DNA of 63,638 bases, counting the filler, from Sphacelaria rigidula (Eukaryota): assembly GCA_964200075.2 (NCBI GenBank). It is 5 parts of 5 records of this genome, joined end to end, with 100 filler letters (N's around TTAATTAATTAA, not from the genome) between each part and the next. Parts side by side here need not be neighbours in the genome. Positions count along the whole stretch, not along the records: positions 50,993 to 63,638 come from CAXNAA020003540.1; 4 more parts are not named here. One strand, written 5' to 3'. Shown here piece by piece: positions 12,651 to 63,638 of this stretch. A model generated the notes under the pieces. It had not been told where the DNA came from and ran no database searches. It saw nothing but the letters and a program-made list of their open reading frames with translations. The position numbers and the translations under genes are program-made. The stretch's first letter is position 1. Each line of letters begins with the position of its first letter.

Positions 12651-12750
12651 NNNNNNNNNNNNNNNNNNNNNNNNNNNNNNNNNNNNNNNNNNNNTTAATT
12701 AATTAANNNNNNNNNNNNNNNNNNNNNNNNNNNNNNNNNNNNNNNNNNNN
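12651..12750. other. Artificial contig-joining spacer
   Basis: N44-TTAATTAATTAA-N44, with stops in all six frames. Confidence 0.97.
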
Positions 12751-25399: not shown

Positions 25400-25499
25400 N
25401 NNNNNNNNNNNNNNNNNNNNNNNNNNNNNNNNNNNNNNNNNNNTTAATTAATTAANNNNNNNNNNNNNNNNNNNNNNNNNNNNNNNNNNNNNNNNNNNN
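25400..25499. other. Artificial contig-joining spacer
   Basis: N44-TTAATTAATTAA-N44. Confidence 0.97.
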
Positions 25500-38146: not shown

Positions 38147-38246
38147 NNNNNNNNNNNNNNNNNNNNNNNNNNNNNNNNNNNNNNNNNNNNTTAATTAATT
38201 AANNNNNNNNNNNNNNNNNNNNNNNNNNNNNNNNNNNNNNNNNNNN
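38147..38246. other. Artificial contig-joining spacer
   Basis: N44-TTAATTAATTAA-N44. Confidence 0.97.
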
Positions 38247-50892: not shown

Positions 50893-50992
50893 NNNNNNNN
50901 NNNNNNNNNNNNNNNNNNNNNNNNNNNNNNNNNNNNTTAATTAATTAANNNNNNNNNNNNNNNNNNNNNNNNNNNNNNNNNNNNNNNNNNNN
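50893..50992. other. Artificial contig-joining spacer
   Basis: N44-TTAATTAATTAA-N44. Confidence 0.97.
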
Positions 50993-51060
50993 GGGAATCG
51001 AACCCCACAACTCATCCATCAGAAAGTTACGAAGTTACCAACTGAGCCACCGGGGCGACC
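50993..51060 (-). mobile_element. tRNA-like head of SINE at contig edge
   Basis: Reverse complement GGTCGCCCCGGTGGCTCAGTTGGTAAC...GGTTCGATTCCC has good A and B boxes. Confidence 0.8.
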
Positions 51061-53180
51061 GGCATGCGACGGTGATTGTGTGTATGTGTTTGTGTTCTAC
51101 AAAACGCACGGTTACATGCACACACACGTCCACGTGGTGCACACAGACGTGTTATCTCGACGGACTTGCGACTTCTGCGTGAGGGCGCCAAAGCCATTAG
51201 TTCTGAGTGTCGTGCCGAAGCGGTGTTTCGCGGTAGAACTCGGGCATACGGCTCAAGACTCTCCAAGATAATCTATCTCTTGGGAGCCAACCCCCAACTA
51301 TCGACCCTGAGGTACTCACCGGTAATATGTGCTTTGGTTCATCGACAATGACAAGAACCAGAGAGTGAGGACCCCGGTATACATGGTACGTGATTATTTG
51401 GCGTGGTTCCCGCTCTAACAGAGAGGAGCCGCTCGGGAGCGTCGGACTTACCGCCATTTAAGGGTTCGCCGGCGGTATTGTTCCGAAACGAGATCTGTGG
51501 CGTAAGGAGCTAACCGTGTCAACGCTCGCGTGTGCCATTCTGTTGACTCGGCATGATGTTCACCTGGAAAATGACTTGTCAGACTCAATCTGTCCATCTG
51601 CGGACGCTTAAAGGGGTGGGGGGGGGAAGTGAGGCGATGGTTCCGGCATACTTGTGAAGCCGAGACTCACCGCTTGTAGTAGTTTTGGGGCAGTGTGGTA
51701 CGCCTCTATTTGCTCCCTGCGCTCACTACACAACGGTGCACGGTATTGGTATCGTCGAGTCCTCTGGAGATGGAGCACGATACGCGCTCGTACTGCTGAC
51801 AGACCTAGCAGGAGGTACGCTCTACCGCAGAAGATTCGTAGGGCACTGATGAGAGTCTTGAGAGGTTCCTCCACCCAACATGATGAGCCGCAAAATGAAC
51901 ATACGCACACACGTACACATAGGTGCGCATACATCATATACGTATGCATACGCGCGTACATGTACGTACACACACACACAAATGGGCATTGTTGGTGTAC
52001 AAGCTGGAGCGGCGTGCCCCTGTCAGTCAGTCAGTACCTCGGGTGACTGAGAACAAGACGTCCCTGGGTGGTGACGAGTTGGACAAACCGAGATTTCGTC
52101 GGGGGACCAAGATCTTTTGTTGCGTTTCCCAAAAAGTCTCGTTCATGACGACCGAAAATCTCACCGACATGTGTTTACAAAAAACATTTTTTTGGTGTGT
52201 TGACCGCGGCAGCTCCCCGATGAAAGACCGACATTGGTAAAATATTCTCCTTTTTTTTTGCGTTTCGCGGGGATGTTGCTTGCCGTGAAATATGGTACAG
52301 CAGCATCGGACAAATACGGGACACGAGAGAGCTTCACGCTGTCTTGAGCGGGCAGTTGCGATACGCATCAGCCGTTCAGCCCATAACTGTAGACCATGAT
52401 CATGTCGGTATCGATGTCTGGAATTCCGAGACAGATGTCATTTCGAATTAATGCTGACGGCTCGTGTCACCATGAGGTCCATGTGCGTGACCCGGAGCAG
52501 TACGAGCTTATGATTATACGGATAATGCTTTGTTCTTGAGACAACTGAAGATTAGTTCTTCATCAGGCCAAATAATTACAGGACGGTCAGTGAGTGCACA
52601 TGAACGCAGTGCTTGGATTGCACAGGGCAAACGCATGATGCCACACAGTCGACATGGACAGGCAGGAGGAAGACCTGCCCAGTAGCCTGCTTATTCCGTA
52701 GGAACAATCTCCTGCCTGATTTCGATCACGACGTATCTGTGTGTTTTCGGATCGCCCAAATTTGCACTTGAGTCGTCAACATTTTTTTGCAAAGCGCACA
52801 GTCTTATCTCATCTTGGCCCATCTTGACCTAAGAATCGACCCCCCCCCTGTTCTTGGTCTCGCAATTCCTCGTCGCATTCCAACCATGGATGTAACTGTT
52901 ACATTGCCCTGTCCAAACGGGCGTTGCCCTCCCCGCATCATGGCAAGGTGTCGTGCTAGCGGAGGAGTCACCATATCCAGCCCAGAATTCATCAACCTCT
53001 CGACCAGTGCATCTTGCCGAACGTGATACGATGTTGATATTTTCCTCGCCGGTCAGTTTGTCGGACACCAGGAAGCACCTTTGTTTCCTCTCAGCGGAAC
53101 TCGGAATTTTCTCCCTTGTCATGACACAGGGTCGGAGCATGACCAAAGCTAACGTGTAAATATCGTGGCCGCACGCGCAG

Positions 53181-53342
53181 GTGACAGGCGAGTTCGTACG
53201 ATTGTTCAAGATGAGATCTCAGCTCGATCAGCTGCTGTTCCCGGAGATGCTGGGCAAGGCTATCATAATCAATACGCCCAGTCTGTTCAGCTACGTCTGG
53301 GCGATGCTCGCTCCCATGGTTGACGCCCGCACACGATCGAAG
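53181..53342 (+). CDS. CRAL-TRIO/Sec14 domain exon (first recognisable exon; upstream exons not found)
   Basis: CAG|GTG...AAG|GTCAGA. DQLLFPEMLGKAIIINTPSLFSYVWAMLAPMVDARTRSK matches the Sec14 motif YPE.L....IIN.P..F...W....P..D..T..K. Confidence 0.9.
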
Positions 53343-53824
53343 GTCAGACGGTTCTTGTGGTATTCGGGTAGCCATACTATACACACGATACCACACCACC
53401 TTGTACTTGTGGTCTTACCGTCAGAGGAAGTAATACAATTCTGTTTCGAGAAGTCATAACCTTGTCACAACGTTGGAGTTCCAGCTAAGTGAGCGAGCGC
53501 CCTTGACAATGCTAGTGAACTGTGTTCCTGCAGATGCTCCGAAGATCGCCCCTTGAAAAGTTTAACAGGGTGAATGTTCGGGAAGTTTCCCCCGCAGACC
53601 GCTACTCATTTCAATAATTTTTACTCTTCCGCGAATTGTAACATCAACCATTCCGTGTACCATATGTTGTACCCCATACGTACACCACCGTCAAACGTTT
53701 GGGCAAGCTCCTAGACTGAAGTTGAAGTCCCCCGCCCGCTCCCCCCAGTTGACGGTATGAAGAAACATCTTCCTGCTTCCCAAATTCTATCAATTTTATA
53801 TATTCGCAAATTGATTTCTCGCAG

Positions 53825-54610
53825 GTCGCTGTGATCTCGCGACCAGCAGACTACAAAGCAGCTTTGCTCGATATCGCAGACGCCGATCAGATCTCCCCGG
53901 AATACGGAGGCACCGGCCGACGGCTTGCTGACCTTGCCTCCCTCGGAGACGCTCTCCTGGCCGCCGGCAACCCCGGCAGTGGCGGCGGTAACGGTAGCAG
54001 CGACCACCACTCGGTAGCAGCTGGCGGACGTACTGATCATTCTAGCGTGTCGGGTGGCCGACGGGGCGGTGATGGTCATGGTGGGGGCCAGGTTGAATCC
54101 GACGGTGAGATGGAGAGGGGAGGAAGTCAAGCACGTCCAGAGCTTTGTGTCGGTGTGGACGCCGCAGTAATGGTGGAGAATGCCGACGGCGGCGACGGTC
54201 GCGGCGGCGGCCGTAGGTCTTCTTCCACGGATGTGGTGGATGAGGGTAATGGTGGGCGACGGAGCATAGTTGTCGGCGTGGGTCCTAGTGATAGCCACTC
54301 CCCCGGAGGATCCGGGGTGTACCGTAATCCCACGACGACTGGTGACTGTAGCTCTGGCTTCATGACTTCCCCTACTCCCGACAATTTAAGGCGGCGTGGG
54401 GGGGTCAGGCTCGTCCCGGAGGAGAAGGCGCAGGGGAAAGAGCGGAGCGGCGATACCGAAGGGTGGTTCTCTGGAAATTGGGGCGTGTTTAGTCGTGCAT
54501 GGTGGTTTGGGGAGGAAAACGGGCGGCAGGGTACAGCTGGGGAGAGGAAGGCTACGGCGGAGGAAGGAGATATGAAATATGACTCGAGTGGTTCACCCGA
54601 TGAGGAAGAG
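53825..54610 (+). CDS. Exon: CRAL-TRIO C-terminal end plus Gly/Ser-rich linker
   Basis: TTTCTCGCAG|GTC, donor GAG|GTGCGT, phase 0/0. LLDIADADQISPEYGG matches the Sec14 end motif (I...QLP.EYGG). Confidence 0.85.
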
Positions 54611-55307
54611 GTGCGTGTGGTGTGCTATTACACGGGGAGCTGCTCTATCTTTGTTTTGTAGTGAACATACGCTGGGCAGCAGACAACATGACACTGCGGT
54701 GTTACACAGCAGCATTGTTGTTCGTCAATACAAAAGAATGCGCGTACATGATTCGGATTTTGAGGAAGAGAGGGCCGGTTGACCTGCACGTGTGTGTGTG
54801 TGTCTAGTCGGTGCTTCGATATGGTCGGCGGGGTGAGCAAGAATGCTCTCGTTGTAGGCAGCCGCCGCGGGGTGCGTTTTTCGTCGCGATGGTTGTAAGT
54901 CGACTTGACTGTGGCAAAAAAAAACGTGGTACAGGTGCTTTCTTTTACTGTTTGCCCAGGCGTAAGAGGACAGTAGCGAAAAAAACACTTTGAAAAGCAA
55001 GCAAGCAAACAATAGCGACAGAGATCAAGAGGCGATCGCATCATGAGAGCATGCATCTGACTGCGATTCGTTTTGTGTTTTGCCGGCTATACGAAGGTAG
55101 GATAGTCATGATCTTGCGCCACTACTGTGCGGATGTCCGATGCTACTGCGCCACTCTCAACCCGTGCTCAGGGATCGGCGCGAATATCCCAGGATGCGCA
55201 GCGCTTGTTTGCCCCTGAAAAAACAACGTCTCTTGTTTTCCCCCACTCAAGTTTATTGTCGTTATGTTTGCGACACGACCTCCCGAAAAAATCGTGAGTT
55301 GACCCAG

Positions 55308-55895
55308 TTCTTCGACGCGCTCAACGAGCTGGACTATCAGGCCCAGCGCGACAGCTGGGATGGCACACTAACATATTTGGTTCCATCTCGCTCTGTCCGT
55401 GAGGATAGCAACCAGCCGCCACACGATGGGGGCCGTGGTCGGTCGGGAAGTTCGAGGAGAAGCCACGGCGGCAAATATGCGCCAAATATAAAAAGAAACG
55501 GCGGCGATGTTGAAAACGGAGGCTTCGCTTCTCCCGCAGTCGCCGATACCGACGACGGCGACAACGACGGTAGCAGCGGCAACCGTACGAGCAAATTTTC
55601 AATTTTTTCCTGGTTGCGCAGTTACTGGGGACGGGAGGCGTCATGGTACAATGGCGACGACGACGACGACGACAACTCCCATAGCTCGAGGTCGGGTACG
55701 TCAGCGCAACAGCAGCGGCGGCAACACGGGCAACGCTGGTCGGCGGGCGAAACAACGACGGCTGTAAGCCGAGGAAAGGCCGACGGTTCCCGGGGGAAGT
55801 GCAGGGCTGCAAACCCGGCCCCATATATGTCAGCAGCGCTGGGGTGGTGCTGCAAGCCGGCTTTGCGGGCCCTGGGGCGTAGGAGCATAGACACG
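55308..55895 (+). CDS. Exon: FFAT-like motif plus low-complexity linker
   Basis: CCCAG|TTCTTCGACGCG in frame with ORF 55140-55928. Proposed GC donor ACG|GCAAGT gives phase 0. Confidence 0.65.
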
Positions 55896-56461
55896 GCAAG
55901 TGTCTACACCCTGTACAATTATCCGTGACATTGGAAAACCAAATATACCGTTTCGTAAAAACGATGAAGCAAGTTGTCCGAAGGCCAGAGAATTCGCTGG
56001 CGATGTCTTGCGGTGTCGCATAGCACAGCAGTTCCAGCGTAATGCTTTGCAATCAAAAGATTCCCAAGGCAAGTGTCGAGTACACTGGAAGAAGGCAAGC
56101 GGCGGTGAAAGTGCCTCGTTGTCCTGAGCGTGCGAGTTACGAGTGACGGAAATGGTGTATGAACCTACGTGAGCGCTACTTTTAGTGATGGTGAACATGA
56201 GCACAAGCCCCTGCCCCCCCTTGATTGTTTTCAGCACTTGAATCAACATATACCTGGCTTTGTTATTCGTGGCTGGGCAAAATCTGCTCTACCGTAATGA
56301 ATTTCGAACAAGTGTTGACATAGACCCGCCCAGTTTTGTACAATTACCGGGATGGGTCTCGAAGTCTATCCCGAGTACTTTGAAATACTACTTCATCCCC
56401 TGTCGGTTGTTCATGCCTACTCTAAACTCGTGTTTAGGGTTAATCCCCTCCCCCTTGTCGT

Positions 56462-56665
56462 CAAACAGGACGGGGATAATATATGTAGAAGGTTTTTGTG
56501 TAATGTATGGAAGAAACGTAATGACATATGGAAGAAAACGTCATGAGCGCCGGAATGTTGGAGGTGTCTCTATTAGGAGTAGGAACTCACGTGCTCCATC
56601 TCGAAAGGGATGCGTGGTCAATGATCAAACGACTAAGGCAAGCAAAAAATGAGTACGCACCCCCC
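56462..56665 (+). mobile_element. Intronic non-LTR retrotransposon 3' fragment with C-rich end
   Basis: Colinear with 5776-5954. Confidence 0.7.
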
Positions 56666-56712
56666 GTCCCCCGCCGCGACCGCCTTGCGTCCCCATCCTC
56701 CTGGTGCCACAG

Positions 56713-57051
56713 TTGGCACGGTGGCTCTGCATTGCAAACGCTGTGTCTTCACTGTTGGCCGTAGGCTGCATCGTGGCGGGGACATTCAGTGTGTCCACTT
56801 CTTGGCTGGGCGCACTCCTCGGTTGGCAGTTGGGGGCCATCGTAGCCGTCTGTCTTGGCTCGCTGCTTCTTCTGCTGGCCCTGATGGGCACCGGCGGGGC
56901 ACGCTTGCGGAACCATTTTACTCTCCTGGGGTTTGCAGTTCTAGAGGCAGTCGTGGCCTCTGGCACGTTGCTAATGAGTGTTTGGTGCCTTGCTCTGGCG
57001 AGTGGGATCGCTGAGGTGTCGGACTTGACCTGGGAGTACATTGATAAGGAG
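56713..57051 (+). CDS. Exon: tetraspanin-like TM1-TM3
   Basis: CCACAG|TTG...GAG|GTGAGG. LCIANAVSSLLAVG..G / LGSLLLLLALMGTGGARLRNHFTL resembles tetraspanin N..., G..GA..N..L. Confidence 0.8.
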
Positions 57052-57384
57052 GTGAGGCCGTCTGGGTGTTGTTATAGGTAGTGGTGGTTTGGGAGAGTGG
57101 GTTGTCGGTTACTATGTGTCGTGAGGGGCGCTGTTTCGGCGTTGATTGGGCGTTGGGTCTCGTATGTGGTTGGTGGTTCCGGCATAATAAACAGTCGTCC
57201 TTTCAACGGGTATATGTGATAGCGGCTGCATGGAATGTCCCCGAATCGTGCAGCTCACGCGCTCTCTAGGCAGAACATAACCCCGTGGCGCTTCCCTACC
57301 CACCGCCACCGCTCCTTTCCCCCGTCACTTGTTTATGCCATCATGCCACCAACACAACCGCCAAATTACCGCTCACACTCGCAG

Positions 57385-57653
57385 CGAAATCCTTCAGTAA
57401 CGAAGGGGCAGTTCCTCGACGGCGCACGGGACAGGCTGGTTGCCGTCGGTTGGTCCGGGCTGACGCTGTCCATTTTCTCGATGTTGGGACCGTGTCTGCT
57501 GGCGGTGGCATTGTCCAACAAGATCAGGCAGGTGGAGGGGATGGAGGAAGGGACACGGAGAAATTCTGACGGGAAGAAGAGGTCCAGGCAGCTGCGACGA
57601 TGGTTTCAGGAGACGAATGCGCTGCTGACGGCGTTCGCATGCGTTTGTACGGG
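57385..57653 (+). CDS. Exon: TM4 and start of second TM repeat
   Basis: CTCGCAG|CGA...GG|GTAAGT, phase 0 to 2. Confidence 0.8.
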
Positions 57654-58310
57654 GTAAGTAGTCTCGGCGGGGGGAGGGGGCAGCGGCAGCGCGATGGCCC
57701 AACTTGAGGTTCCGCGGGGGTGCTATTCAAGATGCTGTGGTCCTTTTATTCTTGGGTCTGTCAAGGGAGGGTAAGGGGAACTGATGGGGAGGTGATCTGT
57801 GTAAGGAATTTGCAAATTTTATCTTGAATGGAATATGTCGTCTGATTTTGGGGTGAGTATAGTTGTTACTACTCGGGAGATTTATTTGGATTGGTTGATC
57901 GATCAGTTATCTCGTGTAAACTGATGAGTTACGAATCCGGCCGTGCTCAAAATATGAATGTACCCGAGGTATATGAGCGTAATTACTCGCTCAAAATCCA
58001 CTTGATCGAGAAAAGAGAATGAAACAAAGAAGCGATGCGAAGAAAAAGAGAGCAAAACGGAAGAAGAGAGGATGAGAGAATAGCCGAACTAGACGAAGCC
58101 GTTGACGTAGAGCTACGTCAAGGTCGGGACTGAGTTGATCTCGTAGTTAGCCCAACAGGTTCAAACACGCTACATTGCACGATTCACACGACTCCCAGTT
58201 TCCCCGGCTCAATCGCATCTCGCCCTCACCGCCACTGACACCATGCTTGACCTTTATTTACTGTTACGCTATTTCACTGCCGCCTGTCCTCGCAAAACAC
58301 AACAACAAAG

Positions 58311-58420
58311 CTACGGGGGTTATGGGCTGTCATTCACCATCTCCGTCGGCCTTGCCGCGAGCGCGACAAGCACGTACCTCATGCTGGCGGGCGGCTACAT
58401 CCTGCTCCTAGGTGGCATAG
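58311..58420 (+). CDS. Exon: TM segment
   Basis: AAG|CTAC...ATAG|GTGAAG, phase 2 to 1. YGGYGLSFTISVGLAASATSTYLMLAGGYILLLGGI. Confidence 0.7.
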
Positions 58421-58751
58421 GTGAAGCCTGCTGCACTCACCGTATCAGATCCAGACAGTGGTACGGCGTATATAGGCGCGCGCATGGAGAGGGGGGGCGG
58501 GGGGTTGCGTAAGGGAGCATGTCTACTCAGCCGCAGCACGATCCAGCCTAGCGCTTTCACGCCGTGACATACGTAACAGATTGTGGTGATTCTTGACTGA
58601 TCAGATCTCGTAACACCCACCGCTGCACAGACAGTGAACAAGTACGGCTGTAGAAGTACATGGGAGCTTCCTTTGCTTTGACAAGTCAGTCTCGTGACAC
58701 CCGCGGCCGGCCCTCTCCTGTCCGCCTCCCCCTGAAACGTAATCTGAACAG

Positions 58752-59292
58752 TCGGCGCTTGGGCGGCTTCGAGCTCTCGCCCGGACGCCTACCGGCTGCA
58801 CTTCGGCACCCTCCTGCCGGCGGGCGCGTTGTACGCGGCCCTCACGGTCACGCAGCTTGTTCGCGCCAAAACCAGTAACGCGGACGTCCAGCAGGCGTGG
58901 CATAGCCTCACCCCAGGCAGCCATGATTTGTCTATGGTGCAAGCGAAAGCCAGAACGATCCTTATCGTGGGCGGTGTGCTCAGCGCTGTTACCACGGTGC
59001 TGATTGTCGCTGCGATTGTGGCGTCGAGGGCGACGCGATCCGCTCTGCTGAGTATTGAAGGCAGTAGTGTTGGGTATTCGACTGGCGACGGGCGGCGCCG
59101 ACGCCGGCGGCGGTTCAAGACCTCGTTGACGAGAAGAGATAAAATGGTCGCTGCGTGGGCCTTGGCTTTGGCTGCGACTTCTACATTCCTGGACGGGAGC
59201 TTTGCAGTGTTCAGCGCGTGGTTGGCGATGGATAGGAAGCAGTCGGTATGGCTGGTGGCTTTTTGGCAGGCGATGGGAAGGGGGGACCGGCG
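58752..59292 (+). CDS. Exon: multiple TM segments and Arg-rich loop
   Basis: AACAG|TC...CG|GTGAGC, phase 1 to 2, in frame with ORF 58829-59296. Confidence 0.8.
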
Positions 59293-59791
59293 GTGAGCTG
59301 ATTTGTGATTTTGACCAATGCTTACCACGGGGCGGGGTCACCGCGCGTAGGCGGTGGTTGTTATCGAAGCTTGCGGTGTTTGGGGAGTGTCAGGCAGGTA
59401 GCATTACAGCAGGTGGCACTTCCCTACGTGTGGCCGGACCAAAAATGTGTTTTGTACTGGCGGTTTGTTTAGGCAACCAGTGAAGGGCGCTGTTCATTTC
59501 TCACCAAGGAGGCACCGACGAACCACTAGGTCTGATTATGCCCGTGTGCTTGGTCCGAGTGCGAAATAGTCCGCCGTTGAATCCCGAACTTCCACCCACC
59601 ACAAGGATTGCGTCAACGGCACCCCGAGTTTGAACGGCGCGATGTTTTCCTCCCGAAATCTTGAGTTCTTCGTGAGAGAAAATACTGATTATGCTAGTTT
59701 TCATGACCTTGCCCTACCCACCCCCACGCCCCTCCCCTTCTTGCTTGTGGTCAACCTTTGGTCGGTCCACGGGGAACAACCATCCGCACAG

Positions 59792-60326
59792 TTACGTGGA
59801 GGGGGACACTTTTGTGGTCGCAACCGCGATAATTGTCGCCGCGGTGGTGGGTCCGGGGGCTCTGCTGTACGCCTGGGCGGTGTATTGCCGCAAGGGGTTC
59901 CGTTTCTCAGTAGGTATACTCGTGTGCTCAGCGTCTCTCTACACACAGCTTCTGCGGTACGTCACCAAGTCAAGTGGACAAAGCGCTTCAGAGGGTGAGG
60001 GTGTAGGTGGTGGAGGGGGTGGCGGGTGGGAGGAGAATTACGCGGTGTTCGTCGCCGCTTCTGTTTTCCTAGCTCTGTTACAGATCTGCGGCGCCTCGGC
60101 TGTCCTCGTCTACAACATTCGAGGCATGTCCAAGAGAGTACACGCGGCCGAGGTTCAGTACAAGGCGTTACTTATCGAGCACGATAGGCTAGAGAGCACG
60201 ACTAGTGCCAGGCAGCAGGTCGGGCGTGCTGCCAGGGGTCGAAGTGAGCGGCAGCAGCAGGATACTGAAACGAAATGCCGGCGCCGCAGCGGCGGGCTAG
60301 GGACCGTGGCAGAGCAGAAGGCGTAG
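59792..60326 (+). CDS. Terminal exon: three TM segments and charged tail
   Basis: CACAG|TTAC phase 2, stop TAG 60324-60326. The 8 exons sum to 3330 nt (1110 codons) with no frame conflict. Confidence 0.8.
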
Positions 60327-61628
60327 ACGAAAAAACATAAGAAGACAGCCTTCATATACATCTGTGACGGTGCCTTGTGCGAGATGTTCTATGGCTGATG
60401 TTGCTACCCTGGCGCATAGATTCTCGTCGTGTACACGAGGTCAAATAGTTGTGCAAATAAGTTGGTGCTGGGACTGTACGAGAAGCTGTGCTAAAAGTGG
60501 CTTATGAACATACCACGCTGCCTCATACGAATATGGCAAGAGGCGGCGCGGGTCTACCGTTGCCGGCGGTAGCGCGGTGTGGGCATGCCAATCAAACGTC
60601 TGAGAGTGCTGCAGCGGCGAGTAGAATTTTTGCTGTTTTTTTGCGGTATGTTTCATTTTTGACAAAAAGCTCGAAAGGGGGAAGTACCTATGGATCGTTG
60701 GTATTTCGAGTGGGCGTGTTGTGCTTTGTATAACTTGTCTGTTCTTCCCGGATTCGCCTGGACAGTGTTTGGTTCGGTATTTGTGTTTCTTGTGAAGATA
60801 TGTGGTTGTCACACCATCGCATGCGAGGAACGTATGTTTTTTTGTGTGTGCCTAGAGTCCCCCTATAAGGAGTTGTTTGTCCTGAGTGTCGTCGTTTTTA
60901 TCTGTGCCCGACGCTGTGCTTGTTTTTGGTCTGCGCGACTTTTTGCGTGCAACAGATGTGCACCTAGCATGGCGTAGCAATCGCTCGTCGACCGATTTGT
61001 CGATTAGATACCGGTGTCTCCGGCAGCAGCACTTGTTCGCCGTGGCATGCTGTAGGTATGATGCTGTGCTCAGTAGACGTTCGAGCTTCCAGTCTTGGGA
61101 TTGGGCATTTGGACCTCCAACGCTTGCACACTGGATTTGTAAATTTAAGAAGTGGTGGTGTGATCAGATGAGAAAATTAAGACATGAAGTCTACAGTACT
61201 GTCACAGCATCATCCCTGTAGACATTGAGGCCCAAGAACAACTGAACGGTTCTCTTCCAACTCTGGTTTTGTTACTCGGCACTTATTTCCCCAATGACTA
61301 AATCTGGGAACGGAGAAGTCCCGCGCTGCGACATTTCGCCTCATTTCCCTGGTCTAGCGGATCCATACATGAGGACGTTGTATCGAAATATGCAAGAACG
61401 TCAGCGTTGAAACGCTCAGTAGCCAGATTTGACCGCACGACAGTAACGCGAGGTTCTGGGGAATGACCATTGTAGGTAACCAAGGTCAGTGGCCGATCGG
61501 GCGATTAGGGATCTCCGTTTCTGTGGCTTTGTTTCGTGCAGCAGTCTCGGCTGTGGCTGCCGAAGCCATAGTGTGTACACGATGGCCGCATCCGGCACAC
61601 CTCCGCGCAGGCCATGCTACGTGCACTA

Positions 61629-62092
61629 GTGGCGTTATCACCGCTCGTGCTGATCTCCAACGTTCAGCCTGTTCCGTTGGTGGCGCATATACACGAAGAA
61701 TTTCGACGCACGTTTTGTGCATGCCAATGCACAGTGAGCGGCCTCGCGGCCCAGCCCCCGCTGTTTTAACGTAGGTGCTGTCTCATCCACCAAAAACAAC
61801 TTCCCGAAATCCTTCAAGACAGGCGACCATGTAGCTACTGGACGCTAAAATGATGAGAACACATTGGTGGTGTGATCACCGCTCGTGCTGATCTACATCC
61901 GTCAGCGTGTTCTGTTGGTGGTGCATATACACCAAGAACTACAGTAGACGCGCGCCTTGCGCATGGCAACGCATAGTGAACGGCCCCGCTGTTTTGATGT
62001 TGGCGTTGTCTCATCCACCTGAAACGACTTCCAGGAATCCCCCAAAGACAGGCGGCAATGTAGCAACTGGACGCTAAAACGATTGAAACATG
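61629..62092. repeat. Diverged tandem duplication, ~235-bp unit
   Basis: ATCACCGCTCGTGCTGATCT...GTCTCATCCACC...ACTGGACGCTAAAA occurs twice. Confidence 0.85.
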
Positions 62093-63495
62093 TGCAGCAC
62101 AGGATGTCAATAACTGCAGCATTCCTCCCTAAAGGGCTGATGTGCACACGAGAAGAATCAATCGAATCCGTTCACAACAGGTGCAACCCATTTGCTGAAA
62201 AATCTTGTGCCGTGCCGAGGCAAACAACGCTTTCACATTATTGGACGGGAGATCCCTCTGAAAATATGATGCCTGATTTACAGGGAGGGGAGGGCTGTTC
62301 CCTTTCGGTCAAACAACAGGTGGATACCGAGATAGAGAGTAAGTTCATTGCGTTTAAGCCAGATACCAAAAGCAAGATTAAACGCTAGGGGGCGCGACTC
62401 TCCATCACCAAGGGTTGAAATCACGTTGAACTCGACCCCTTCCACGCTCCACGCAGAAGCAGCTACGAACGTTCAAGTAATGTGCAGCCTCTTCCTCGCG
62501 ACGTGCACCCGCATGGCCGCCCGTTTTAATCCTGCCGTAGTTGTGACCTAGCTGTTGACCCTTCACGTAAAATATCGCCGTGAAAGTCTTGTCCCGTTTG
62601 ATGACATGGGTAATGGCCACCGCATTGCTCTTTGTATGCCGTGTTCTGCTGCTGGCTATGGCGGCCTCGTGAGTGCCATTGCGGAGCACCGCTGCTAGAA
62701 ACACCGTTACGGCCGCCACCATTGCTGTACTTCGCGAATCGAGCAGCGGTCACTCTTTTCCTCAGTTCTTCCACATGCCAGTCCAGATAACCTTCTAACG
62801 CTGGCCCGGTACACAGCAGACCGGTGATGTCCGCGTTCCCGAACATAACGTAGCACCTGACAGTGTTGTTGTCGTCGAAGAATCGAGAGCAGAGGTGTGT
62901 TTGCGTGGGGAGCGGAGCTAGGAAGTAAGGGCACACACGTCCCGAGGTATTCGGCGCCACGTATATCTCGTATTGGCATGGAATTGTCGGTGTGTATCGT
63001 TAATACGTTCTTGACGCGTGTTCGATTCTCGGTGCAACCCGTTCCCTGCGAACAGAGGGACACCGTCCCGGCTTTGTAGTGACGGATCTCCGATGGGGTT
63101 GGCGTTGGTTGGCGATGACGCTGCAAAACACGCCACTCACTGCGTAAGCTAGGCAACCAGGTTACCGATAGTTTTTTACGCACTCGAGTTTTTTTGCGGT
63201 AACCGTGATGGTGGTCGAGCTGGATAATATTGTGCGGAGTGGGAGGACCTCAACTCCGCGCAAAAGAGATGATCGTACTACGTAGTGTTCAAATGGTGAG
63301 ACACCCATGAGACCGTGTGTGAGCCGTGACTGTCTCTGGAAGTGGCGATACCAGAAGATGAATTAGGTAATTGGAGGCTGTCATCCATGTGTAAGATAAT
63401 CAGTACGCTTTGGGCCGAACAATCTCAGCAGGATTCAGGTCATCCTTCATGCGACTCGCCGAACACATCACGGCGCCTCGCACTTGATTATTGAT

Positions 63496-63591
63496 TGCGA
63501 GCCTGGTCCAGCCAAACCCCGGCGTGCCTCGTCCCGGCTTTGAAGGGATGCGAGGTCAACAGTCTTAAGACATGAGTACACCCCCCCCCCC
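63496..63591 (+). mobile_element. Repeat 3' end with CATGAGTACA-(C)n
   Basis: Copy of 47823-47931. Confidence 0.6.
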
Positions 63592-63638
63592 TCCTTCCCC
63601 CACCGCTCGCTTGGTGATTGAAACACCCTGGATCCGTT

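Follow-up and report, generated by a model that had tools for sequence, protein, structure and literature searches.

In the genome of Sphacelaria rigidula (GenBank assembly GCA_964200075.2), a locus at positions 53181-60326 of a joined stretch of 63,638 nucleotides (nt), here called the window, reads as half of a Sec14/CRAL-TRIO lipid-binding domain followed by a long linker and a series of membrane helices. The locus raises the questions whether these parts belong to one protein, what the membrane part consists of, and what such a protein would do. The gene is real and expressed, and its RNA splices the linker exon directly to all the membrane exons; the Sec14 part is read as belonging to the same spliced RNA. 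The 12 membrane helices are three four-helix units, two of them homologous tetraspanin-like bundles and the third an EXPERA domain like that of EBP, and a conserved FFAT-like motif in the linker would fit a tether between two membranes. The window consists of five pieces of about 12.65 kb each, and each spacer between two of them is made up of TTAATTAATTAA with 44 N on either side. The gene sits in the last piece (50993-63638), and the sequence upstream of 50993 is therefore unrelated to it.

Transcript evidence and a conserved fusion

Eight exons (Table 1) were joined in frame, with phases 0, 0, 0, 0, 2, 1 and 2, and translated into 1109 amino acids (aa) and a stop, which reproduced the model of an initial annotation made from the sequence alone. 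The order given there, a C-terminal half of CRAL-TRIO, a Gly/Ser/Asp-rich linker of about 420 aa and a transmembrane (TM) part, was borne out by the Pfam match of exon 1, a linker length of 427 aa and the RNA joints. Introns 1, 2 and 4-7 are bounded by GT..AG, and intron 3 by GC..AG.

Eight sequencing runs come from one organism and two studies, none of them labelled RNA on record, and four of these (X1, X2, X8 and X5) were mapped on 51000-63638. X5 covers the whole region at about 28× and is a DNA run. The RNA nature of X1, X2 and X8 was judged from depth behaviour only; they were taken as RNA because their depth is zero in stretches where X5 has about 28×. Zero depth was found at 51000-52687 and 57752-58173, and the cover approximates the exons. 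The figures of X1 and X8 are identical, perhaps one data set filed twice, and the independent support is that of X1/X8 plus X2. A 2054-nt contig present in X1, X2 and X8 joins 55306-55894, 56712-57049, 57383-57652, 58310-58418, 58750-59291 and 59791 onward. Five of the seven joints are direct in RNA (55895/56713, 57051/57385, 57653/58311, 58420/58752 and 59292/59792), and the joined forms are not present in the DNA run. The joint 53342/53825 is consistent with a 1693-nt contig, a piece of which starts at 53823, and with bin depths equal to about 160 nt of exon 1. The initial annotation had singled out two joints for confirmation; 55895/56713 is among the five seen directly, while 54610/55308 is not among the joints listed and intron 2 is largely retained, as discussed below with the motif that this splice assembles. 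It had also considered a transcript ending at the stop 55926-55928, with a separate membrane gene; that stop lies within intron 3, which is removed.

The gene model is truncated at its 5' end, and position 53181, earlier taken as the start of the feature, is an internal acceptor and not the gene start. The 1693-nt RNA contig carries 905 nt upstream of 53823, of which just 162 nt lie within the window, so that it runs about 743 nt beyond it, and tblastn with eight full-length homologues gave matches that begin only at 53169-53181, the first ~235 residues of the homologues' Sec14 domains having none in the window. The window holds the larger, 3' part of the coding sequence, and the N-terminal half of the Sec14 domain is encoded upstream of the piece start at 50993; CRAL_TRIO_N and the N-terminal part of CRAL_TRIO, absent from the window piece, were both found in orthologues. 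An open reading frame (ORF) at 52896-53156 shares the frame of exon 1, with one TAA, inside a 27-nt GT..AG stretch, between the two, and resembles the missing Sec14 strand by eye. It was rejected, having neither RNA cover nor a tblastn match from the eight homologues, and the likeness is probably chance.

The architecture is that of a conserved family and is not unique to the S. rigidula genome. Exon 7 finds 25 longer proteins (E 3.9e-58 to 2.5e-41, 54-64% identity), including those of Laminaria digitata, two Ectocarpus species and Scytosiphon promiscuus. The Scytosiphon protein P0025 (1027 aa) contains CRAL_TRIO_N, CRAL_TRIO and EBP/EXPERA in one chain. With the membrane part of Ectocarpus P0021 as query, phmmer returned 138 proteins at E <= 1e-3, 87 of them at E <= 1e-10, out of 1.84 billion representatives. 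A Pfam scan covered the longer ones, 43 of the 138. CRAL_TRIO was found upstream of the membrane domain in 23 of these 43, which answers the concern, voiced with the first description, that homologues might never fuse the two parts. EBP reached E <= 1e-3 in 17 of the 43 (14 above the cut-off) and Tetraspanin in 18 (4 above the cut-off: P0051, P0058, P0060 and P0117). CRAL_TRIO and EBP occur together in 10 proteins, CRAL_TRIO, Tetraspanin and EBP in 4, and two CRAL_TRIO domains in 3. Named members come from Chrysoparadoxa australica, Triparma columacea, Chrysophaeum taylorii, Tribonema gayanum, Pelagophyceae sp. CCMP2097, Discosporangium mesarthrocarpum and Telonema subtile, and the search across relatives proposed at the outset recovered the same fusion in Chrysoparadoxa, Triparma, pelagophytes and Telonema.

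The fusion is not an artefact of exon chaining, since fused ORFs nearly fill short contigs (P0045, 919 aa in 2940 nt; P0040, 1135 aa in 3889 nt) and the Telonema proteins P0090 and P0178 are ORFs of TRINITY transcripts. Telonema is a predator, and its transcriptome entry could be derived from prey. The database names of family members stop at 'CRAL-TRIO domain-containing protein' or 'hypothetical protein'. In full-text literature, subscription journals being outside the scope, no description was found of a fusion of Sec14 with EXPERA, nor, for stramenopiles, of Sec14 with a tetraspanin, and the main text of the paper that defined EXPERA contains neither 'Sec14' nor 'CRAL' (PMC4263179). An anchored FFAT-bearing lipid-transfer tether is a known kind of protein and the present combination of modules is undescribed. 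The earlier statement that no protein of this architecture had been described holds for the literature, but not in the sense of a unique protein.

Twelve helices in three four-helix units

A family profile built from 40 members was compared with solved structures, and three separate regions matched. The E-values were 3e-50 to 5e-49 for the Sec14p/SFH5 structures, 1.2e-32 for human EBP (116 bits, chain positions 65-234), and 7e-9 for CD53, 3e-8 for CD81 and 2e-7 for TSPAN15, with TSPAN7, CD9 and UPK1B also matched and the tetraspanin range extending to 4e-4. A profile without the Sec14 parts matched TSPAN15 at E 7e-6 and EBP at E 1.5e-24.

The family alignment of the membrane part was cut into three blocks and these were compared by hhalign. 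Block 1 matched block 2 with a probability of 97.9% (E 6.7e-13 over 152 columns), whereas the controls against the EXPERA block gave 0.1% for block 2 and 0.9% for block 1. The tandem repeat of blocks 1 and 2, already noticed in the initial annotation, is therefore real and not an artefact of membrane-helix composition. The same control values led to the rejection of another candidate, in which the anchor would consist of three EXPERA repeats of the TM6SF type.

Single sequences reached the Pfam Tetraspanin family (PF00335, cut-off 32.1 bits) below the cut-off, with 13.9 bits (E 0.044) for exon 4 of the window and 21.2 bits for Ectocarpus P0021, and the Pfam matches span only profile positions ~2-128 of 225. 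The outer loops are 34 and 32 aa long and contain 0 cysteines, and no CCG occurs anywhere in the membrane part. With the N-terminus inside, 39 of the 141 residues proposed to face the cytosol are Lys or Arg, against 15 of the 130 on the opposite side; by this charge distribution the two termini of the membrane part are assigned to the cytosol, together with every basic loop. Four helices with both ends cytosolic, as in tetraspanins, are indicated by the helix positions, the charge bias and the models. Blocks 1 and 2 are remote tetraspanin relatives without the defining loop features of that family, in agreement with the earlier wording, "tetraspanin-like at most".

AlphaFold models were made of two orthologues, not of the window's own spliced protein. 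The model of Ectocarpus P0021 has a predicted local distance difference test score (pLDDT) of 80.1 and a predicted template modelling score (pTM) of 0.67; that of Discosporangium P0026 has a pLDDT of 88.4 and a pTM of 0.82, with 12 long helices. In VIA-align, block 2 of the P0026 model matched uroplakin (Z 16.6) and PRPH2/ROM1 (Z 16.1), and block 1 matched CD53 (Z 9.1). Block 2 also matched MS4A proteins (FceRI-beta, CD20) and de novo four-helix bundles (Z 11.7-14.1), which was set aside as generic bundle likeness. A search of the ESM Atlas gave no usable match. The packing of 12 helices into one confident model (P0026) would also suit a protein in which the membrane module is itself the working part, be it a transporter, a scramblase or a tetraspanin-type microdomain scaffold, and the Sec14 domain a regulatory lipid sensor; many Sec14-domain proteins do sense or present lipid instead of carrying out bulk transfer. 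This explanation is held to be improbable, as no transporter fold is prominent among the structural matches and as a very long tether and a conserved FFAT-like motif typify contact-site carriers.

The database models P0021 and P0019 (Ectocarpus) and P0025 (Scytosiphon) skip helix 4 of block 1, which corresponds to window positions 57385-57520. This helix is present in the RNA-supported exon 5 of the window and in the Discosporangium protein, and exon 5 matches P0026 across it (BLASTP E 1e-14). Its omission would invert the topology of the Ectocarpus and Scytosiphon models, which are probably mis-predicted. Pairs of cysteines stand directly before helix 1, as LGWCCKPAL in the window (55830-55895) and in the motifs QCCAKMMCC and RLC in relatives. 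They resemble the juxtamembrane cysteines of tetraspanins, which are palmitoylated.

The initial annotation had left the end of the protein as about four more helices and a charged tail. The helices are present, and their identity is now that of an EBP-like EXPERA domain. Exon 8 alone scored 21.9 bits (E 2.3e-4) against Pfam EBP/EXPERA (PF05241, cut-off 25.7), the domain being split over exons 7 and 8, and Scytosiphon P0025 scored 26.4 bits. Exons 7 and 8 as single sequences gave nothing significant against solved structures, where EBP appeared at E 1.3 in the correct register. The P0026 model matched EBP entries 8w0r_A (Z 16.9, root mean square deviation (rmsd) 2.2 over 162 residues) and 6oht_A (Z 16.6, rmsd 2.3 over 155), and the sigma-2 receptor with Z 12.3; for the P0021 model, Foldseek placed EBP first (E 2.2e-3, probability 1.00). 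The four-helix EBP fold is thus predicted in the models of the orthologues.

Catalysis by EBP has 11 major determinants, according to the part of the source available: H76, E80, W101, Y104, D108, R110, Y111, E122, T125, N193 and W196 (PMC4263179). They were mapped through a HMMER alignment to EBP and the family alignment; for the last two, a two-step alignment was judged by eye. At the first nine sites the residues of the window are S, D, W, M, D, R, Y, A and V, and by eye it has A at N193 and Q at W196. Four are identical (W101, D108, R110 and Y111) and one is conservative; neither H76 nor E122 is kept. The residues of the window at the first nine sites recur unchanged in five of the seven brown-alga rows, and P0001 and P0026 bear other non-EBP residues at some of these sites; H76, Y104, E122 and T125 are replaced in the window and in all seven rows. 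Because the catalytic His76 and Glu122 of EBP are lost, an isomerase function of the brown-alga domain is unlikely, although, by analogy with the sigma-2 receptor, which we take to be a non-enzymatic EXPERA example, the domain may still hold a sterol-like ligand. The cholesterol-bound sigma-2 entry 7mfi is among the structural matches.

These substitutions (S for H76, D for E80, M for Y104, A for E122 and V for T125) bear on a second explanation, in which the EXPERA domain is taken to be catalytically active, as a sterol delta8-delta7 isomerase or some related isomerase, with the tethered Sec14 domain supplying its sterol substrate or taking it away. A parallel exists in SEC14L2 (supernatant protein factor), which stimulates squalene epoxidation. 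The match to EBP is strong in sequence and in fold, and the distant members P0058 and P0117 retain H76, E80, W101, Y104, D108, R110, Y111 and E122. Given the residues of the window and of most brown-alga rows, an enzyme with a lipid feeder nevertheless seems an improbable account of the protein.

Sec14 domain, linker and a proposed lipid-transfer tether

Exon 1 matched Pfam CRAL_TRIO (PF00650) at E 6.7e-9 (36.2 bits, cut-off 22.6, profile positions 79-128 of 153). In a by-eye alignment, FPEMLGK and MVDARTRSK of the window stand against YYPERMGK and FLDPVTVSK of Sec14p, and E, D, T and K would be kept; we take these to be the residues E207, D233, T236 and K239 (Sec14p numbering) of the phosphatidylinositol (PtdIns)-binding barcode. 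A PtdIns-binding barcode defines the Sec14 superfamily, as stated in the accessible part of PMC7462610.

The linker is composed of 17% G, 12% S, 10% R and 9% D, and is predicted from its sequence to be disordered and cytosolically exposed. As a query for longer proteins, exon 3 gave no match at E <= 1e-3, because the linker is too divergent. Across the junction of exons 2 and 3 the window reads SPDEEE followed by FFDALNE. In its conventional form, an FFAT motif is made up of EFFDAxE with an acidic flank upstream and is a ligand of the MSP domain of VAP proteins, which reside in the endoplasmic reticulum (ER), according to the part of PMC8306308 that was available. The window core E-F-F-D-A-L-N fits 6 of the 7 positions, position 7 being N followed by E, and the acidic flank SPDEEE stands directly upstream once intron 2 is spliced out. 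Among 33 long members examined, the strict pattern occurs in the linker of the window protein, P0025, P0035, P0039 and P0040, and in P0108 outside the aligned position; it arises in 0.1-0.7% of shuffled linkers. All 26 aligned full-length members have a related motif in the same columns, with F (23) or Y (3) at position 2, D (20), S (4) or E (2) at position 4, A (21) at position 5, and D or E (13) or S (6) at position 7. The eight residues upstream of it include 4-8 D, E, S or T, and a relaxed pattern is found in 25 of the 26 members, against a mean of 18% in shuffled linkers. The motif is the sole conserved element in otherwise unalignable linkers; about 235 residues separate it from the Sec14 domain before it, and about 190 from helix 1 downstream.

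As a whole explanation, an anchored lipid-transfer tether working like STARD3 is considered probable, though with considerable reserve. The 12-helix module would fix the protein in one membrane, and the FFAT-like motif would bind the MSP domain of VAP on the ER and so hold two membranes together. The Sec14 domain could then swing on its tether and move lipid between them, as in STARD3. The EXPERA unit of brown algae would more likely be a module for sterol or lipid binding, for sensing or as a reservoir, than an isomerase. With intron 2 retained, the product would be a soluble Sec14 protein that lacks both FFAT core and anchor, and splicing may set the ratio of free to anchored forms, which is the most speculative step. 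The initial annotation had proposed a contact-site lipid transporter from the domain order; the conserved FFAT-like motif, which it had not seen, adds independent support, and the function itself we still infer.

STARD3 combines a four-helix cholesterol-binding MENTAL domain, an FFAT motif and a START domain, tethers endosomes to VAP on the ER and moves cholesterol, as described in the available part of PMC5430228. STARD3/MLN64 (with STARD3NL) of animals resembles the present protein in that a single chain unites a polytopic anchor, a motif of FFAT type and a lipid-transfer domain in the cytosol. It differs in that the transfer domain is N-terminal here, so that the order is inverted, and is Sec14 instead of START; the anchor has 12 helices of unrelated families instead of 4, the linker is about 430 aa long, and there is no sequence relationship.

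Several results weigh against the tether. EXPERA proteins such as EBP are ER residents, and if the anchor resided in the ER it would place the FFAT-like motif in cis and weaken the analogy with STARD3. The fold match of block 2 to tetraspanins is just about 2 units above that to de novo four-helix bundles (Z 16.1-16.6 versus 14.1). The motif rows are related, with near-duplicates P0054/P0164, P0045/P0163, P0073/P0174 and P0090/P0178, and the 26 members are not independent events. A 755-nt RNA contig (54581-55335) carries intron 2 unspliced at a depth of 22 in X1 and 13.8 in X2, and the contigs flanking the intron have depths of 13.1 and 19.1 in X1 and of 18.5 and 20.8 in X2; the unspliced form is thus at least as deep as the flanking exons in X1 and reaches about two thirds of the flanks in X2. 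Finally, the FFAT-like motif is put together, and the frame held open, by the splice 54610/55308, and this joint is not among the 15 of 72 listed.

The intron 2 data would also suit two products. Most mRNA would keep the intron, whose frame ends at 54659-54661 after 16 extra residues, and encode a soluble Sec14 protein with a disordered tail; the membrane protein would be made from an internal start, and the fused protein would be minor or non-existent. The depth of the unspliced contig and the unlisted joint agree with this, as do an open frame at 55101-55928 with an in-frame ATG, Met codons upstream of exon 3, and the brown-alga database models P0019, P0005 and P0004, which hold the membrane part only. 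The intron 2 cover does come from this locus, since the DNA depth there is single-copy. The flanking contigs, however, end precisely where the intron has its GT and its AG (54610 and 55306) and overlap the unspliced contig by 30 nt. A bubble in which a spliced path runs beside the unspliced one gives such a pattern, and from it splicing of intron 2 was inferred. The acidic tract and FFDALNE become adjacent in the window only by removal of the intron and are adjacent in the uninterrupted ORFs of relatives, which gives comparative support for the splice 54610/55308. Scytosiphon P0025 and 22 other relatives are fused, and the membrane-only models start mid-helix (MLLSGTWCLALAGG, MVAGGYLLLLAG) and so look like truncated predictions. 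In X2, a 521-nt contig (59267-59787) also covers the last intron (59293-59791) unspliced, at a depth of 6.1 versus 20.8 for the spliced contig, so that the libraries hold some unspliced RNA. Two separate products are accordingly regarded as unlikely.

An extension of the tether model would be a machine that extracts and carries lipid, in which the three membrane bundles collect a sterol or isoprenoid lipid and pass it to the Sec14 domain of the same chain, which ferries it across an FFAT-VAP contact, with regulated retention of intron 2 switching between free and anchored forms. CD81 has a cholesterol-binding cavity and offers a parallel for the tetraspanin-like bundles; the third bundle would contribute a de-catalysed EBP pocket. 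This fuller scheme is doubtful; if it held, contact-site lipid transporters would gain a new class that is ancestral to photosynthetic stramenopiles, and the protein would serve as a 'Rosetta stone' for Sec14, tetraspanin and EBP biology.

Other known systems share single parts of the architecture. The last four helices are homologous to human EBP and the EXPERA superfamily (TMEM97/sigma-2, TM6SF1/2), with the differences in catalytic residues given above and with the domain fused here behind eight other helices and a Sec14 domain. Tetraspanins (CD81, CD9, CD53, TSPAN15, uroplakins, PRPH2) share the four helices, both cytosolic ends and the profile and fold matches; here the large loop has 32-34 aa without cysteine or CCG, and two units stand in tandem. 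To our knowledge, Sec14 proteins are soluble or have simple targeting devices, and FFAT carriers with polytopic anchors, such as STARD3, use START domains. MOSPD2 consists of CRAL-TRIO, MSP and one TM helix (PMC8306308), and SFH5 and SFH7 take part in the transport of phosphatidic acid between ER and chloroplast (PMC12096540), each according to the portion of the source at hand. MOSPD2, the plant Sec14-nodulin SFH proteins and the Sec14-GOLD patellins likewise join Sec14 to a membrane-targeting device and act at contacts, but have no polytopic anchor, EXPERA domain or tetraspanin-like repeats; moreover, MOSPD2 carries the receptor (MSP), and the present protein carries the ligand (the FFAT-like motif).

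The protein thus brings three module types, each of which by itself handles sterols or other lipids, into one chain together with an ER-docking motif. The family spans brown algae, bolidophytes, pelagophytes, xanthophytes and apparently Telonema, in which lipid traffic at the ER and the complex plastid is poorly understood, and it offers a concrete candidate for studies of brown-algal contact sites and sterol handling. It is also a natural case for the role of a de-catalysed EBP domain and of cysteine-free tetraspanin-like bundles. Several brown-alga database models are truncated or lack helix 4 and deserve re-examination.

Coordinates and surroundings of the gene

The features of the gene are summarized in Table 1.

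Table 1. Features of the Sec14-tetraspanin-like-EXPERA gene and spacers of the window.
Feature	Position	Strand	Description
Spacers	12651-12750, 25400-25499, 38147-38246, 50893-50992		Features not to be read across
Exon 1	53181-53342	+	C-terminal half of CRAL-TRIO (Sec14), VTGEFVRLFKM...TRSK; internal exon; Pfam, tblastn, RNA depth of ~160 nt
Intron 1	53343-53824	+	GT..AG, 482 nt; RNA contig piece begins at 53823, 2-nt AG ambiguity
Exon 2	53825-54610	+	End of CRAL-TRIO (...ISPEYGG), then Gly/Ser/Asp-rich linker; RNA contig 53823-54610
Last codons of exon 2	54593-54610	+	SPDEEE, acidic tract and position 1 of the FFAT-like motif
Intron 2	54611-55307	+	GT..AG, 697 nt; retained in a large share of RNA
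Exon 3	55308-55895	+	Linker; FFDALNE at 55308-55328; Cys-rich juxtamembrane end (LGWCCKPALRALGRR); RNA spliced onward to 56712
Intron 3	55896-56712	+	GC..AG, 817 nt; donor GCAAGT (good); in-frame stop 55926-55928; high-copy dispersed repeat at ~56536-56660
Exon 4	56713-57051	+	TM1-TM3, tetraspanin-like block 1; RNA joints
Exon 5	57385-57653	+	Short outer loop, TM4, basic cytosolic loop (predicted), start of TM5 (block 2); RNA joints 57051/57385 and 57653/58311
Exon 6	58311-58420	+	End of TM5 and start of TM6 (block 2); RNA joints; tblastn with P0025, E 3e-8
Exon 7	58752-59292	+	TM6-TM8 (rest of block 2), Arg-rich cytosolic loop (predicted), first EXPERA helix and W..GD.R motif; RNA joints
Exon 8 (last coding)	59792-60326	+	EXPERA helices 2-4 (YVEGDTF...), charged helical tail, stop 60324-60326
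3' untranslated region (UTR)	60327-61233, end approximate	+	RNA contigs 60040-61103 (X1, X8) and 60041-61233 (X2); depth ~0-1 at 61550-61971

Some further observations were made in the piece that holds the gene. At its edge, the minus strand of 50993-51060 is tRNA-like by eye, with a T-arm (GGTTCGATTCCC) and a D-arm-like element (TGGCTCAGTTGG), and is cut by the piece edge; Rfam and ARAGORN found nothing on 50993-63638, this stretch included. Just past the 3' UTR, a unit of about 230 nt stands twice in tandem at 61624-62090, with three co-linear repeat pairs of 81-85% identity. A very high-copy dispersed repeat occurs at ~56463-56660, in intron 3, and at 63167-63638. In RNA-like and DNA runs alike, contig depth there sums to 5e4-6e5, and many cross-joints link the two places. 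The copies share the end ...GAAGGGATGCG.GGTCAA...ATGAGTAC.C-rich and have no Rfam match, and they probably belong to a transposon or SINE-like (short interspersed element) family. Downstream of the gene, 62519-62856 is part of a separate 1220-nt RNA contig with a depth of about 8, which suggests another transcribed unit running into the repeat region.

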